From sequence record PX655591.1: 38,819 bases of DNA. One strand, written 5' to 3'. This document shows positions 7,136 to 38,391 of this stretch, in pieces. This DNA comes from a phage. The notes below the pieces were generated by a model. The model was not told the DNA's origin and ran no database searches. It was given only the letters and a program-made list of their open reading frames with translations. Positions within the stretch are counted from its first letter, which is position 1; each line of letters starts with the position of its first letter. A program made the position numbers and the translations under genes.

Positions 7136-7396
7136 ATGTCTAAGAACTTAATGTTCAACCGTTATTCCAATACCTTCCACCTGTCCAACAACCCGTTCGC
7201 TTGCATTAAGCGCAACGAGAAGCTCGGATACTTCGGGAAGGCAGTTAAGTTATCACCTACAGTCTTCGCGCTGATTACTCCTGGCAAAGCTGAAGAGGCT
7301 CGCCAGAAGCGTGAGACCAGCGTACCTGTGGTCTACACTAAGTGGCCTCGCGTTCGTCTGTTCGTTGAGTTCGTGAAGGAGGTGGTCAATGTTTAA
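7136..7396 (+). CDS. Gene 1.6-like hypothetical protein, 86 aa
   Basis: ORF with RBS AAGGAG; assigned by position only. Confidence 0.5.
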   Translation: MSKNLMFNRYSNTFHLSNNPFACIKRNEKLGYFGKAVKLSPTVFALITPGKAEEARQKRETSVPVVYTKWPRVRLFVEFVKEVVNV

Positions 7397-7829
7397 GGTT
7401 GGGGATACAGTTGAATATGTTGGACCAGTTGAAGCCTACATGGGGCTCTCAGGTGGCAAGGTGATTATAGTTAGAGGGCCGGCAGTTGGCGTTAAGTGGC
7501 CCCATTTATCTGAACCAGTCATTCACTCCTCTAGAGCCTTAAGTATTACCAATCAGGAGCAGGCTGAGACGCCAACAATAGGTCAGGAAGACAGCGTCCG
7601 TAAGCCGTCCCACTATCAGGTCTTTGACGGTGTTGAATCCATTGAGATTATCGCTCGGTCAATGACTGTCAGCGAGTTCCGTGGTTTCTGCATGGGTAAC
7701 GTCCTGAAGTATCGACTCCGGGCCGGTAAGAAGTCCGAGCTGGCCACTATGGAGAAGGACCTGAACAAAGCAGCCTTCTATCAGGAGCTGTTCGACCTGC
7801 ATAAAGGTAAGTGCTATGCTGCCGAGTGA
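7389..7829 (+). CDS. Gene 1.7-like hypothetical protein, 146 aa
   Basis: RBS GAAGGAGG; assigned by position; C-terminal PSHY...GNVLKYRLRAGKK motif resembles a phage DUF-type domain (uncertain). Confidence 0.5.
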   Translation: MFKVGDTVEYVGPVEAYMGLSGGKVIIVRGPAVGVKWPHLSEPVIHSSRALSITNQEQAETPTIGQEDSVRKPSHYQVFDGVESIEIIARSMTVSEFRGFCMGNVLKYRLRAGKKSELATMEKDLNKAAFYQELFDLHKGKCYAAE

Positions 7830-8066: not shown

Positions 8067-8084
8067 ACTATCACTGTAGGACAG
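8062..8084 (+). promoter_or_regulatory. Phage RNAP promoter variant (CCTAAACTATCACTGTAGGACAG)
   Basis: Conserved 23-mer with A to G at -3; upstream of SSB gene. Confidence 0.6.
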
Positions 8085-8124
8085 ACGTCCAGTTCGTAAC
8101 TTTTAAATTAGGAGATTTACACCA

Positions 8125-8823
8125 ATGGCTAAAGAGCAACTGAAGACTTTCACCACTCCGGTAGCTGGTATCGTTGAGCCTTACGCATGGCTAAACAAAG
8201 CAGACACCAAGTTCAACGAGCGTGGTGAACACAAAGTCAACCTGACATTCGACCTGAGCAACCCGAAGGTCCGTAAGATGATTGATGTCTTGCAGAAGAT
8301 TCACGACGATGCGTATGCGAAAGCACTCGCAGACCACGAGAAGAACCCACCTCAGGTTCAGCGTGGCAAGAAGCCTATTGAACCACGAGAAGGCGACATG
8401 CCGTGGATTGAGAATGGTGATGGTACTGTTACCCTGAAGTTTAAATGCTTTGCGTCTTACCTTAAAGACGGCAAGTCCGAGCCTATCGTATTACGGTTCT
8501 ACGACACTGATGCCAAACTAATCCGTGACGTCCCGAATATTGGCGCTGGGTCTAAGCTGAAGGTCAAGTTTAAAGTCCTGCCGTTCAAGTGGAACGCTGC
8601 GACTGGTGCAAGCGTTAAGCTTCAGCTTGAGTCCTGCCTTCTGGTAGAACTGAAGGAGTGGAAAGGTGATGGTGCTGGTGGAGATGGTGGTTGGGGTGAT
8701 GATGAAGACCTCGGTACTGGCTACAAAGCGTCAACCGATGGCGACTTCGGGTCTGACGACTTCGGTGACGATGGTTCCGAAGGTTGTGACGACTCTGGCT
8801 CTGGTGGCGATTACGACTTCTAA
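8125..8823 (+). CDS. Single-stranded DNA-binding protein (gene 2.5-like), 232 aa
   Basis: Recalled identity to T7 gp2.5 (ASVKLQLES...); acidic Gly/Asp-rich C-terminal tail ending DYDF. Confidence 0.95.
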   Translation: MAKEQLKTFTTPVAGIVEPYAWLNKADTKFNERGEHKVNLTFDLSNPKVRKMIDVLQKIHDDAYAKALADHEKNPPQVQRGKKPIEPREGDMPWIENGDGTVTLKFKCFASYLKDGKSEPIVLRFYDTDAKLIRDVPNIGAGSKLKVKFKVLPFKWNAATGASVKLQLESCLLVELKEWKGDGAGGDGGWGDDEDLGTGYKASTDGDFGSDDFGDDGSEGCDDSGSGGDYDF

Positions 8824-9278
8824 TGGCCCAATGGTCTGCAAAACGGGGGCACTCTGTGGGTGCCTACCGCTCTGGACTTGAAGCCAAGAACCAGCAGTGG
8901 CTGGAACAGAACGGCGTCAAAGCGGAGTACGAAAGCCATTATATCAACTATGTGATTCCGGCTTCCGACCACAAGTATACACCAGACTTTATCCTTCCCA
9001 ACGGCATCATCGTGGAGACCAAAGGTATCTTCGATAGTGATGACCGTAAGAAGCACCTTCTGGTACGAGAGCAGCACCCAGAGTTAGACATCCGGTTCGT
9101 GTTCTCAAGTTCCCGCTCCAAGCTATACAAAGGGTCTCCTACCACGTATGGCGCATGGTGCGAAAAGAACGGCTATAAGTATGCCGATAAATTCATACCG
9201 GTTGAGTGGCTTCGAGAGGCGACTGTACGTCTGCCTTCAGGTATCCTCATCCCCAAGAAGAAAGGAGTTAAGTTATGA
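8823..9278 (+). CDS. Endonuclease I, Holliday junction resolvase (gene 3-like), 151 aa
   Basis: YTPDF...VETKG...DDRKKHLLVREQHPELDIRFVFSS matches recalled T7 endonuclease I. Confidence 0.95.
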   Translation: MAQWSAKRGHSVGAYRSGLEAKNQQWLEQNGVKAEYESHYINYVIPASDHKYTPDFILPNGIIVETKGIFDSDDRKKHLLVREQHPELDIRFVFSSSRSKLYKGSPTTYGAWCEKNGYKYADKFIPVEWLREATVRLPSGILIPKKKGVKL

Positions 9279-10497: not shown

Positions 10498-12201
<1,704 letters not shown>

Positions 12202-12441: not shown

Positions 12442-14454
12442 ATGGACTTAAGTAACATATATGGGTCTGACATCGAGACCAACGGTCTCCTTGATACAGT
12501 CTCCCAGTTTCACTGTGGGGTCCTGATTAACGCCGAGTCGAATGAGACCCTTAAGTATGGGGTAGCTCCGATGGTTGGTATCGTCGGTGGCTTCAAAGAG
12601 TATGTGCGTAAAGTGGAAGAGATTGCCGCATCGCCTGATGGTATGCTGGTATTCCACAACGGTATCAACTATGACGTCCCAGCTATTGACAAACTGAAAC
12701 GTCTGTACTTTGGGAAACGTTTTAACTTCCCGAAACACAAGATGATTGATACCTTGGTGCTGGGCCGCTTGATGTATCCAAACATTAAGTTCTCAGACAT
12801 GGGGGCGGTGAAAGCTGGACGTCTTCCACCTAATATGATGGGACGCCAGTCTCTTGAGGCTTGGGGCTATCGTCTCGGTGAGATGAAGGGCGAGTACAAA
12901 CACGATTACGTTGCCAAGTGCAAGGCCGAAGGTATCGAATATAAGGCTGGGGACGAATGGTTGTTCCCGTCTCAGGAGATGCTGGACTATAACGTTCAAG
13001 ACGTTGTGGTCACACTGGCGTTGTTCAAGAAGTTCCTGACTGACAAGTATTACTTCCAGTCTGAAAAGTTCGCTTTCGAGCAGATTTATGCGTTGCGTCT
13101 GGAACATGATGCTGCGTGGACCTGTGCGAAGATGGAACGTAACGGCTATCCGATGAACACAGAGATGGTCGAAGGCTTATATCGTGAACTCACCATCAAA
13201 CGTGCGGAGTTACTGGACAAGCTGCGCTCTACTTTCGGTAGCTGGTATGCACCGAAGGGAGGCAAGGAGTTCTTCAGACATCCACGGACAGGTAAGGATC
13301 TTCCGAAGTATCCGCGAGTCGTGTACCCTAAGGTCGGTGGCATCTTTAAGAAGCCGAAGAACAAAGCCCAACGCTTAGGTCTTGAACCTTGTGAACTCGA
13401 TACGCGAGACACAATGGAAGGAGCACCATTCACTCCAATCACTTACGTTGAGTTTAATCCGGGAAGCGGCGACCACTTAGCGAAAGTCCTGATGGAGCGT
13501 GGCTGGGAGCCTGTGGACTTCACTGACACAGGGAAACCTGTAGTCGATGACGAGACGTTAGAACACGTTAAGTTACCAGACGCAGAGGCTCAGGCTTGCG
13601 TAGAGCTTGTCCGTGAGTATCTGGTGGTCCAGAAGCGCATCGGTCAGGCTGCTGAAGGTAAGAACGCATGGTTGAAACTTGTAGGTCCAGACGGACGTAT
13701 GCACGGTTCAATCAACACATGTGGTGCAGTGACCGGACGTGCGACCCATAGCTCACCAAACATGGCTCAGGTCCCGGCTAACGGTGCTCCATATGGTGAG
13801 ACTTGCCGTGGTGCTTTCGGTGCAGCGTGGAACAAGAAGGATGGTAAGCCAGACCCTTGGATTCAAGTAGGTGTGGATGCTTCAGGTCTTGAGCTTCGTT
13901 GTCTGGGGAACCGAGCTGCTCCGTTTGATGGTGGTGCATATGCGAAGACTGTAGTCGAAGGTGACATCCACTGGGCAAACGCAGTCAACGCTGGGTTAGC
14001 ACCTAACGTCCCACGCGATAAGTCGAGCCACGACCATGATGCTTTCCGTAACAACGCTAAGACGTTCATCTATGCGTTCCTGTATGGTGCAGGGGCCGCT
14101 AAGATTGGACTGATAGTCGGAGGTGGTAAGAAGGAAGGTTCAGCTCTCATGAAGAAATTCATTGAGGGTACACCAGCCATCAAGGACCTCAGGGAAGCTG
14201 TGAGTAATACGTTAATCTCAGACTCTAAGTGGGTAGATGGTGAGAACATCGTGAAGTGGAAACGTCGCTGGCTGAAAGGTCTGGACGGTCGACGCATTCA
14301 CATCCGGTCTCCACACTCAGCACTTAACGCCTTACTTCAGGGGGATGGTGCGGTAGTCTGTAAGCACTGGATTGTTGAGGTAGAGCGTATGCTGGAAGCC
14401 GAAGGATACGTCCACGGCTGGGATGGAGACTTTGCGTACATGGCATGGGTGCAT
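12442..14454 (+). CDS. DNA polymerase (gene 5-like) exon 1, 671 codons, ends ...FAYMAWVH
   Basis: Recalled identity to T7 DNAP including thioredoxin-binding loop KVGGIFKKPKNKAQR; ORF ends exactly before the motif C Asp codon. Confidence 0.95.
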
Positions 14455-15052
14455 TAACATCATGGTGCACATTAAATCTGGTGAACTCGGTGAACTCCTA
14501 ATGGGACAATACCGAGCCAAGCCATAGGGAGGATGTATGAGAGGCAAGAAGTTAATTCTTGAGGCCACTGAGACTGGCTGCATAATCCCTACGTCACATA
14601 AATTGAATCAGGATGGATACTTCCGAAAGAGGACTAACGGTGTCCTTGAGATGTATCATAGAACTGTATGGATTAAAGCTAATGGTCCAATACCTGACGG
14701 TTTCGAAGTAGACCACAAGTGTCGTAATAGAGCTTGTTGCAACGTCGAACATCTACAAGTATTAGACCGGGACTCACACTTAGTCAAGACCAACAAAGAG
14801 CGATACGCTGCTAGGAAGCTAGAAGCACGAGACTACTGGGTAGAGACTGGGTGTACTGGAACGAAGTTAGCCGAAGTGTTCAATGTGTCGTTCTCAGCCG
14901 CCTGTGGGTGGATTAGAGAGTGGAAGGCGTAGAGACTATCCGAAAGGAGTAGGGCCGTGGGTGAGATTCCCACGTAACCCGAAGCGCCAGACAGTCACCT
15001 CAAAGACTGATGATATAGTCCGACACTTCCAGTAATGGGAGAATACAGAAAG
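14455..15052 (+). mobile_element. Group I intron (about 598 nt) in the DNA polymerase gene, carrying an HNH endonuclease ORF
   Basis: Exon 1 ends in U that can pair with G of intron GUGCAC (14465-14470); AGACUAU (14933-14939) pairs with AUAGUC (15015-15020) as P7; G at 15052; downstream exon restores DNAP C-terminus in frame. Confidence 0.8.
14537..14932 (+). CDS. Intron-encoded HNH homing endonuclease, 131 aa
   Basis: HNH motif GPIPDGFEVDHKCRNRACCNVEHLQV; RBS GGGAGGA; ORF stops 1 nt before the P7 core element. Confidence 0.85.
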   Translation: MRGKKLILEATETGCIIPTSHKLNQDGYFRKRTNGVLEMYHRTVWIKANGPIPDGFEVDHKCRNRACCNVEHLQVLDRDSHLVKTNKERYAARKLEARDYWVETGCTGTKLAEVFNVSFSAACGWIREWKA

Positions 15053-15208
15053 GATGAGTTACAGATTGCTTGTCGTACTCAAGAAATAGCAGAACGTACA
15101 GTAGAAATTGCTCAACTTGCTATGCGTAAGGTGGGCGAGTTCTATAACTTTAAATGTGTCCTTGATACCGAAGGTAAGATTGGACCAACGTGGAAGGAGT
15201 GTCACTAA
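15053..15208 (+). CDS. DNA polymerase exon 2, 51 codons plus stop (DELQIACRT...GPTWKECH)
   Basis: Matches recalled T7 DNAP C-terminus DEIQVGCRT...GPNWAICH; no start codon or RBS of its own at the junction. Confidence 0.85.
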   Translation, partial: DELQIACRTQEIAERTVEIAQLAMRKVGEFYNFKCVLDTEGKIGPTWKECH

Positions 15209-38188: not shown

Positions 38189-38211
38189 ACTTAACTATCA
38201 CTATAGGGAAG
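38189..38211 (+). promoter_or_regulatory. Phage RNAP promoter near the right end (ACTTAACTATCACTATAGGGAAG), phiOR-like
   Basis: Conserved 23-mer after the terminase gene. Confidence 0.8.
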
Positions 38212-38391
38212 ACCCCCGGTTACTTATAGTATTACTGTAGTGAATATACATATGCAGACTTTATGCAAGACCTTAGGAGGCAGACTCCGAGTTCTTACCT
38301 AAGGCTTGCACCGATGGAAGGAGGGTGATAGTAATCATAATCCCTCCAATACAGATAGTCACCGACCATAGATACAGGAGGTATGTAGCAT

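Follow-up and report, generated by a model that had tools for sequence, protein, structure and literature searches.

Length, Composition and Overlapping Reading Frame of the Gly/Asp-Rich C-Terminal Tail of gp2.5, the SSB of a K1F-Like Phage

Introduction

The SSB encoded by gene 2.5 of the phage studied here ends in a stretch of low complexity that is very rich in Gly and Asp, and this raises the question of whether such a tail is something new or the C-terminal tail already known from T7 gp2.5. The window analysed was the whole stretch of 38,819 nucleotides of sequence record PX655591.1. The original prediction, made from the letters of this DNA, held that the last 55 or so residues of a gp2.5-like protein are almost entirely Gly, Asp, Ser and Glu, that they end in the Phe expected for interaction with the polymerase, that the tail looks longer and more repetitive than in T7, and that it accounts for a spurious overlapping ORF.

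The tail of T7 gp2.5 is disordered and acidic; it and ssDNA compete for the cleft of the OB fold, and it mediates contacts with the polymerase and other replication proteins and stabilises the dimer (PMC10359462, PMC12339929). In solution the T7 protein was reported to be dimeric and to bind ssDNA in monomeric form, and not to be a tetramer (PMC10359462). Deletion of 21 residues of the tail stabilised ssDNA binding, slowed dissociation and impeded displacement, and the contact of the tail with the front basic patch of the DNAP leads to active displacement of the SSB by the polymerase; the tail is needed both for this displacement and for normal DNA replication (PMC10359462, PMC12339929). The C-terminal Phe is described as critical (PMC10359462; PMC12339929, with its references Kim & Richardson 1994, Marintcheva 2008/2009 and Ghosh 2009).

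Results

Gene 2.5 and Its Surroundings

The genome is that of a K1F-like phage of the T7 family, genus Kayfunavirus, and its first 25 kb were 92.6% identical to Escherichia phage K1F with 87% of the length covered. Gene 2.5 (8125..8823, + strand) encodes an SSB of 232 aa followed by a TAA stop, and the assignment was based on Pfam, on the T7 crystal structure and on gene order. The match to PF21265 (SBB_T7) reached 243.5 bits, far above the cut-off of 27, with E 1.1e-72; it comprised residues 15-176 of the protein and profile positions 2-169 of 169. The sequence of the T7 gp2.5 crystal structure, 1JE5_A, was aligned with residues 7-203 (E 7.9e-54). SBB_T7 was the sole Pfam family reported for gp2.5 at E <= 0.01, and the E. 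coli-type SSB profile PF00436 gave no match at this level. The same gene was present in 221 phage records at 80-99% nucleotide identity, nearly all of them labelled as SSB or helix-destabilizing protein, and over the full length the nucleotide identity to the SSB genes of many K1F-like phages was 95-96%. The gp2.5-type identity given in the original prediction is thereby confirmed, and every family feature of a T7 gp2.5-type SSB that can be tested on a sequence was found in this protein.

Gene 2.5 lies between gene 2 (RNA-polymerase inhibitor; RNA_pol_inhib, PF16857; 7890-8066) and gene 3, which is the position it has in the T7-type class II (DNA metabolism) block. Gene 3 (8823..9278, + strand) encodes endonuclease I (PF05367 Phage_endo_I, E 2.8e-81), and its ATG overlaps the TAA of gp2.5 by one base. 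The stop and the start together read TAATG at 8821-8825, which suggests translational coupling of gp2.5 and gp3. Several relatives (L004, L006, L010, L012 and L013) have another gene inserted between 2.5 and 3; an HNH homing endonuclease is annotated in this region of TM1, and T7 has the endonuclease gene 2.8 at the same position. On the other side, upstream of gene 2, the ORF 7389-7829 encodes a 146-aa DUF3310 protein (E 1.8e-21), at the position of which T7 has the 196-aa nucleotide kinase gp1.7. The gene 1.7 located at this position in CR44b is annotated as a pseudogene without the N-terminal region.

A Shine-Dalgarno sequence, AGGAG (8110..8114, + strand), was read from the sequence 10 nt before the ATG of gene 2.5, and further upstream the phage-promoter-like sequence ACTATCACTGTAGGACAGAC (8067..8086, + strand) coincides in position with a phage promoter predicted ahead of gene 2.5 in the CR44b annotation. 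A related copy of this 20-mer, with 3 mismatches, was located at 38194-38213, near the right end of the genome, with 0 copies expected by chance; the remaining phage promoters are evidently more than 3 mismatches away from it. The search of the whole window with Rfam at the gathering threshold returned no match, and the tail region and its surroundings thus contain no curated RNA element.

Extent and Composition of the Tail

The OB-fold core was delimited as residues 1-176 (8125..8652, + strand) with the help of the AlphaFold model and of a dN/dS of 0.05. It closes with the conserved QLESxxLVEL strand, here QLESCLLVEL, the last residue of which is L176. The tail that follows, K177-F232 (8653..8820, + strand), has 56 aa, and its limits agree with composition, pLDDT, charge-hydropathy and conservation; it reads KEWKGDGAGGDGGWGDDEDLGTGYKASTDGDFGSDDFGDDGSEGCDDSGSGGDYDF and is followed by the stop. 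This is exactly how the ORF 8125..8823 ends, and the low-complexity sequence quoted in the original prediction for the last 55 or so residues is therefore correct. The region had been drawn as 8640-8823: position 8640 belongs to codon 172, so that the region opened five residues ahead of the tail proper, and it closed at 8823 with the final base of the TAA.

The composition of these 56 residues after LVEL176 is G17 D15 S5 E3 K3 F3 W2 Y2 A2 T2 L1 C1, that is, 30% Gly and 27% Asp, with a net charge of -15. Gly, Asp, Ser and Glu together make up 71%; the strong bias towards them stands, and the description of the tail as almost entirely composed of these residues was somewhat overstated. Among the 16 residues left, 7 are aromatic (W179, W190, Y200, F208, F213, Y230 and F232). 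In comparison with the proteome of the same phage (Gly 8.1%, Asp 6.5%), the excess of Gly plus Asp had a binomial P = 2e-13 and that of Gly, Asp, Ser and Glu P = 1.5e-11. When the 56-aa windows of the approximately 10,700 encoded residues were ranked, the tail had the highest content of Gly plus Asp (57%, the next best being 29%) and also the lowest entropy.

Repetition at the DNA level was weak. A tandem repeat of 15 nt in 2.5 copies, GGTGATGGTGCTGGG (8665..8701, + strand; TRF score 46, 77% matches), encodes GDGAG-GDGGW-GD, and within it one 10-mer occurs in 3 copies with a spacing of 15 nt; apart from it there were only a few direct repeats of 9-16 nt. We considered the repeats as a meaningful tandem array and rejected it, as they are merely 2.5 imperfect copies of 15 nt. 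Codon 221 (8785-8787) is Cys (TGT) in this phage, within the disordered tail, and Gly (GGT) in most of the relatives examined. An exact 26-nt search for the DNA variant with Cys221 in the viral-contig collection did not find it, and the residue probably reflects either a neutral polymorphism or a difference in sequencing.

Comparison of the Tail with T7 and Relatives

It had been proposed that the tail is longer than that of T7, and this is not the case. Gene 2.5 of T7 has 699 nt and encodes 232 aa, the same total length as the protein described here. Measured from the LVEL motif the tail has 56 aa in this phage and 52 aa in T7, so that the alignment gave an essentially T7-like length; the conserved Trp occupies position 190 in each of them, with exactly 42 residues after it. 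The 4 extra residues are placed between LVEL and W190, at the GDGAG/GDGGW repeat, and are offset by 4 fewer in the core. The length of the tail in a set of 64 unique gp2.5 sequences, all taken from viral contigs, was 49-56 aa, except for one outlier of 61 aa, the longest seen. This outlier (L064, a Klebsiella-phage-like viral contig) has an 8-residue tandem duplication, DPKDWSGE in two copies, which shows that local duplication can alter the length of the tail, but seldom does. The 15 representatives drawn from several genera of Studiervirinae (Teseptimavirus, T3-like, Klebsiella-phage, Berlinvirus, Aarhusvirus, Ghunavirus, Chatterjeevirus and two unclassified lineages) had tails of 47-60 aa, which gives a family range of 47-61 aa when the viral-contig sequences and 8 genera from GenBank are taken together. 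The whole protein had approximately 223-241 aa across genera and 230-234 aa among relatives with small indels.

That the tail is more repetitive than that of T7 is weakly supported, the Shannon entropy being 2.9 bits here and 3.3 in T7, with the single weak 15-nt repeat already described. The true difference from T7 is composition, Gly/Asp in this phage and Glu/Asp in T7. There are 17 Gly here and 6 in T7, the ratio D/(D+E) is 0.83 and 0.45, respectively, and the aromatic residues are 7 and 5. The share of Gly in the tail was 25-32% for Kayfunavirus-type sequences and 10-20% for the other genera. The ratio D/(D+E) was 0.58-0.83 in Kayfunavirus-type sequences and close to 0.45 in T7-like, T3-like and Klebsiella-phage sequences, but it discriminates less well than the content of Gly because other genera overlap (up to 0.74). 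The two extra Phe with respect to T7 are F208 and F213, and these, together with Y230, were kept in all the Kayfunavirus sequences examined. The YDF end is the Kayfunavirus form, and most other genera have GDF, EDF or DDF. Considering that all of the approximately 25 Kayfunavirus sequences examined have the traits of the Gly/Asp-type tail, we regard it as a trait of the lineage and not as a peculiarity of this genome.

Disorder, Conservation and Selection

A model of the protein was built with AlphaFold2 using 25 homologues, and disorder was read from the pLDDT and from charge-hydropathy, both taken as proxies; a low pLDDT is a proxy for disorder and not a measurement of it. In the core the means of 10-residue blocks were approximately 67-89 for residues 11-180 and 60 for residues 1-10, and pLDDT was at least 70 for 145 of the 232 residues. 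The modelled core has OB-type β-strands, a helix at residues 47-73 and a last strand at residues 162-175. Residues 179-232 were below 50 (about 36) and without secondary structure. The charge-hydropathy calculation agreed, since the mean hydropathy of the tail (H 0.355) was below the boundary of 0.509, on the disordered side, and the core fell on the other side. The tail is thus predicted to be intrinsically disordered and acidic, and this supplies the disorder prediction that had been proposed as a check of the region.

Within this tail a small number of positions were conserved. In two alignments, of 15 and 25 homologues, F232 was invariant and D231 was invariant or nearly so; the Phe that had been noted at the C-terminus is therefore a family feature. 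It closes the terminal motif D229-Y230-D231-F232 (8809..8820, + strand), which was defined on the homologue alignments. The landmarks shared across genera were GG..(W/F).D, G(Y/F).A, an internal aromatic residue approximately 20 residues from the end, and the terminal DF.

Selection was estimated on 23 distinct Kayfunavirus gene sequences. A dN/dS of 0.146 was obtained for the tail and one of 0.048 for the core, values that point to a constraint relaxed about threefold in the tail and clearly still purifying. The proximal half of the tail had a dN/dS of 0.08 and the distal half 0.19. The dS was higher in the tail than in the core (0.59 vs 0.31), a difference that could partly reflect ambiguity of the alignment in low-complexity sequence.

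The Overlapping ORF

An ORF of 71 aa with a GTG start overlaps the tail in the +1 frame with respect to gp2.5 (8666..8881, + strand). It is annotated as "gp2.55", without function, in K1F (AM084414) and CR44b (NC_023576), and the genome announcement of CR44b contains no statement on gene 2.5 or 2.55. On the basis of its relatives and of frame tests we judged it to be non-coding. The opposite view, in which "gp2.55" is a genuine gene that overlaps 2.5 and encodes a small hydrophobic protein, with dual coding shaping the choice of codons and amino acids in the tail, would account for the two CDS annotations, for the approximately 70 aa over which the frame stays open in the majority of the Kayfunavirus relatives and for the AAGGAG placed 7 nt before the GTG, but it is hardly credible given the behaviour of the sequence in relatives. 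The AAGGAG was rejected as a ribosome-binding site, as it is simply the Lys-Glu codons of the conserved KEW in front of an ORF without coding constraint. In 7 of the 23 scorable Kayfunavirus relatives, L004, L006, L010, L012, L013 and L023 among them, the ORF was truncated, cut or provided with a different C-terminus, and in others it was shifted. In L010 and L023 the codon of L196 changes from CTC to CTA, a substitution that is synonymous for gp2.5 and introduces a TAG into the +1 frame, and wherever another gene comes after 2.5 the last third of the ORF was unrelated.

The frame tests argued in the same direction. Pairwise amino acid identity was 0.84/0.80 in the +1 frame, equal to that of the stop-filled +2 frame (0.85/0.82) and below that of the gp2.5 frame (0.94). 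A reduction of the synonymous variation of gp2.5 under the ORF was looked for in the Kayfunavirus relatives and not found; third-position diversity was 0.27 under the ORF and tail and 0.16 in the core, and dS was likewise raised there, instead of lowered, with respect to the remainder of gene 2.5. What keeps the frame open is the composition of the tail. When residues 181-232 were randomly re-coded with synonymous codons, the +1 frame was free of stops in 81% of the trials, against 11% for random 52-residue segments of the proteome, and 92% of the Kayfunavirus tails had no +1 stop. The +1 frame remains open because a stop in it can arise only from gp2.5 codons whose second base is T; there are four such codons only in the tail (CTC and three TTC), none of which gives a +1 stop as written. 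The original prediction was thus right in that this ORF exists, that it is spurious and that it is explained by the tail, and the "gp2.55" CDS that the records of K1F and CR44b carry is most likely, on the comparison of these sequences, an annotation artefact that should not be propagated.

Putative Partners of the Tail

Taking into account that the T7 tail contacts the polymerase, we compared the residues involved. K587, K589, R590, R591, K594 and R599, which form the front basic patch of T7 gp5, were identical in the spliced gp5 of this phage, as were the basic residues of the thioredoxin-binding domain K268, K285, K300, K302, K304 and R307. The gp4 primase-helicase also ends (12154-12201) in an acidic, Trp-containing and Phe-terminated -NDF tail, which is alike to the end of T7 gp4, ...ESTDWSNDTDF, and to the tail of gp2.5. 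This likeness fits with the tails of gp2.5 and gp4 using the same sites on the polymerase.

Gene 5 itself, which encodes the gp5 DNA polymerase, is split in this genome (12442-15208). Exon 1 ends in ...FAYMAWVH and is followed by a stop at 14457 and by a 131-aa ORF with an HNH motif at 14537-14932; the missing C-terminus of gp5 (DELQIACRT...GPTWKECH) is encoded at 15035-15208, and the junction is exactly at H653|D654 of T7. Rfam gave a match of the full Intron_gpI model at 14445-15042, with 35.8 bits (below the gathering score of 50) and E 2e-7. These data point to a putative group I intron that interrupts gene 5 and carries the HNH endonuclease ORF. Gene 5 of K1F has already been reported to contain a putative group I intron, together with a homing endonuclease (PMC4925675).

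Discussion

We consider it very likely that residues 177-232 are the ordinary disordered and acidic tail of gp2.5, acting as in T7, and that the +1 ORF is a by-product of it. By analogy with T7, the tail would fold back to enter the basic cleft in which the OB fold binds ssDNA, where it would compete with ssDNA, and in this way the affinity and the dissociation would be tuned. Its negative charges and the C-terminal Phe may dock on basic patches present on the gp5 DNA polymerase, and on gp4, and this docking would let the polymerase recruit and displace the SSB at the fork. This mechanism of binding and competition is transferred from T7 gp2.5, approximately 50% identical overall and less in the tail, and it probably operates here. 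In the Kayfunavirus lineage the length, the aromatic landmarks and the -DF end are kept, with the charge carried mostly by Asp and with spacers of Gly and Ser rather than of Glu and Ala; the tail is slightly less charged (-15 vs -19), has two extra Phe and would be more flexible. Of the last 26 residues, 10 are acidic here and 15 in T7, and a purely electrostatic model in which the tail mimics ssDNA may carry over only partly because the charge density of the tail is lower than that of T7.

Other readings of the tail give more weight to its composition. One of them is that it acts as in E. coli SSB, with a Gly-rich and largely uncharged spacer (approximately residues 181-203, GDGAGGDGGWG...GTGY) that tethers a short acidic and aromatic module (DGDFGSDDFG...GDYDF), the internal D-F-G motifs being, as a corollary, additional and weaker copies of the terminal motif that binds the partners. 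The high content of Gly in Kayfunavirus-type tails in comparison with other genera agrees with this, and so do the three D-[FY] motifs (F208, F213, Y230/F232), where T7 has one internal Trp and the terminal Phe, as well as the retention of F208, F213 and Y230 throughout the Kayfunavirus sequences examined. However, acidic residues are found along the whole tail (6 in 177-203 and 12 in 204-232), the proximal half is the better conserved of the two, unlike what a mere spacer would be, and the GG..W.D and GY landmarks are common to T7; we therefore regard a two-part tail as unlikely. A stronger form of the idea, that the Kayfunavirus-type tail is a functionally distinct, multivalent variant in which Gly-rich spacers display DGDF208, DDF213 and DYDF232 as copies of the end that binds polymerase and helicase, seems to us more doubtful still; if it were true, the auto-inhibition of the SSB and its hand-over at the fork would be changed with respect to T7.

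The composition could also be of no functional meaning, the Gly/Asp stretch being neutral low-complexity sequence produced by replication slippage on GGT/GAT repeats. The weak 15-nt tandem repeat, the small indels among relatives (lengths 230-234) and the 8-residue duplication of L064 speak for this. Against them, the length is held to 47-61 aa in a protein of approximately 223-241 aa across genera, the dN/dS is 0.15, neither the aromatic landmarks nor the terminal Phe vary, and in T7 the tail is required for normal replication and for displacement of the SSB (PMC10359462, PMC12339929). An origin of this kind as the whole explanation is extremely improbable, and the T7-type tail is the reading that we retain.

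The greater length was the sole comparative claim that would have made this tail interesting, and it fails. The importance of the result is small beyond annotation hygiene: gene 2.5 of a K1F-like phage is confirmed as encoding a standard T7-type SSB. The tail is nevertheless a small and tidy example of a disordered region that is constrained in length, charge and aromatic landmarks rather than in sequence. Across the Studiervirinae its length is tightly kept while the composition drifts between genera, towards Glu/Asp or Gly/Asp.

Comparison with Known Systems

E. coli SSB has an acidic tip, ...DFDDDIPF, and T4 gp32 has an acidic C-terminal domain. For E. coli SSB, part of the literature describes the C-terminal domain as disordered and the C-terminal peptide as the one that binds the partners. 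The resemblance to gp2.5 lies in an OB-fold SSB with a disordered, acidic and Phe-ended tail that recruits partners and auto-inhibits DNA binding, functions which for the present protein would hold by analogy; the Gly-rich spacer is also reminiscent of the linker of E. coli SSB. The differences are that those proteins belong to another OB-fold family, in line with the lack of a PF00436 match at E <= 0.01, and that the acidic residues of the present tail span its whole length and not the tip only.

T7 gp2.5 is much closer. Both proteins share the fold family, the 232 aa, the gene neighbourhood 2 / 2.5 / 3 and the conserved basic patches of gp5, and both have an acidic disordered tail with W190, the GY motif, an aromatic residue approximately 20 residues from the end and a terminal D-F. 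They differ in that their identity is about 50% and in that the tail has G6 D10 E12 in T7 and G17 D15 E3 here, a net charge of -19 and -15, 5 and 7 aromatic residues, and the ends DGDF and DYDF, respectively. T7 also has gene 2.8, whereas here gene 3 comes directly after 2.5.

The closest proteins are the gp2.5 of K1F, CR44b, TM1 and other Kayfunavirus, with 95-96% nucleotide and 98-99% protein identity to the one described here. Their tails are identical except for 1-3 substitutions, and the same overlapping "gp2.55" ORF accompanies them; the presence of Gly221 in most of the relatives examined, where this phage has Cys221, is a trivial polymorphism. Near-identical proteins have been deposited for more than 200 phages, and the Gly/Asp-rich tail is thus a real but ordinary feature that was already known.
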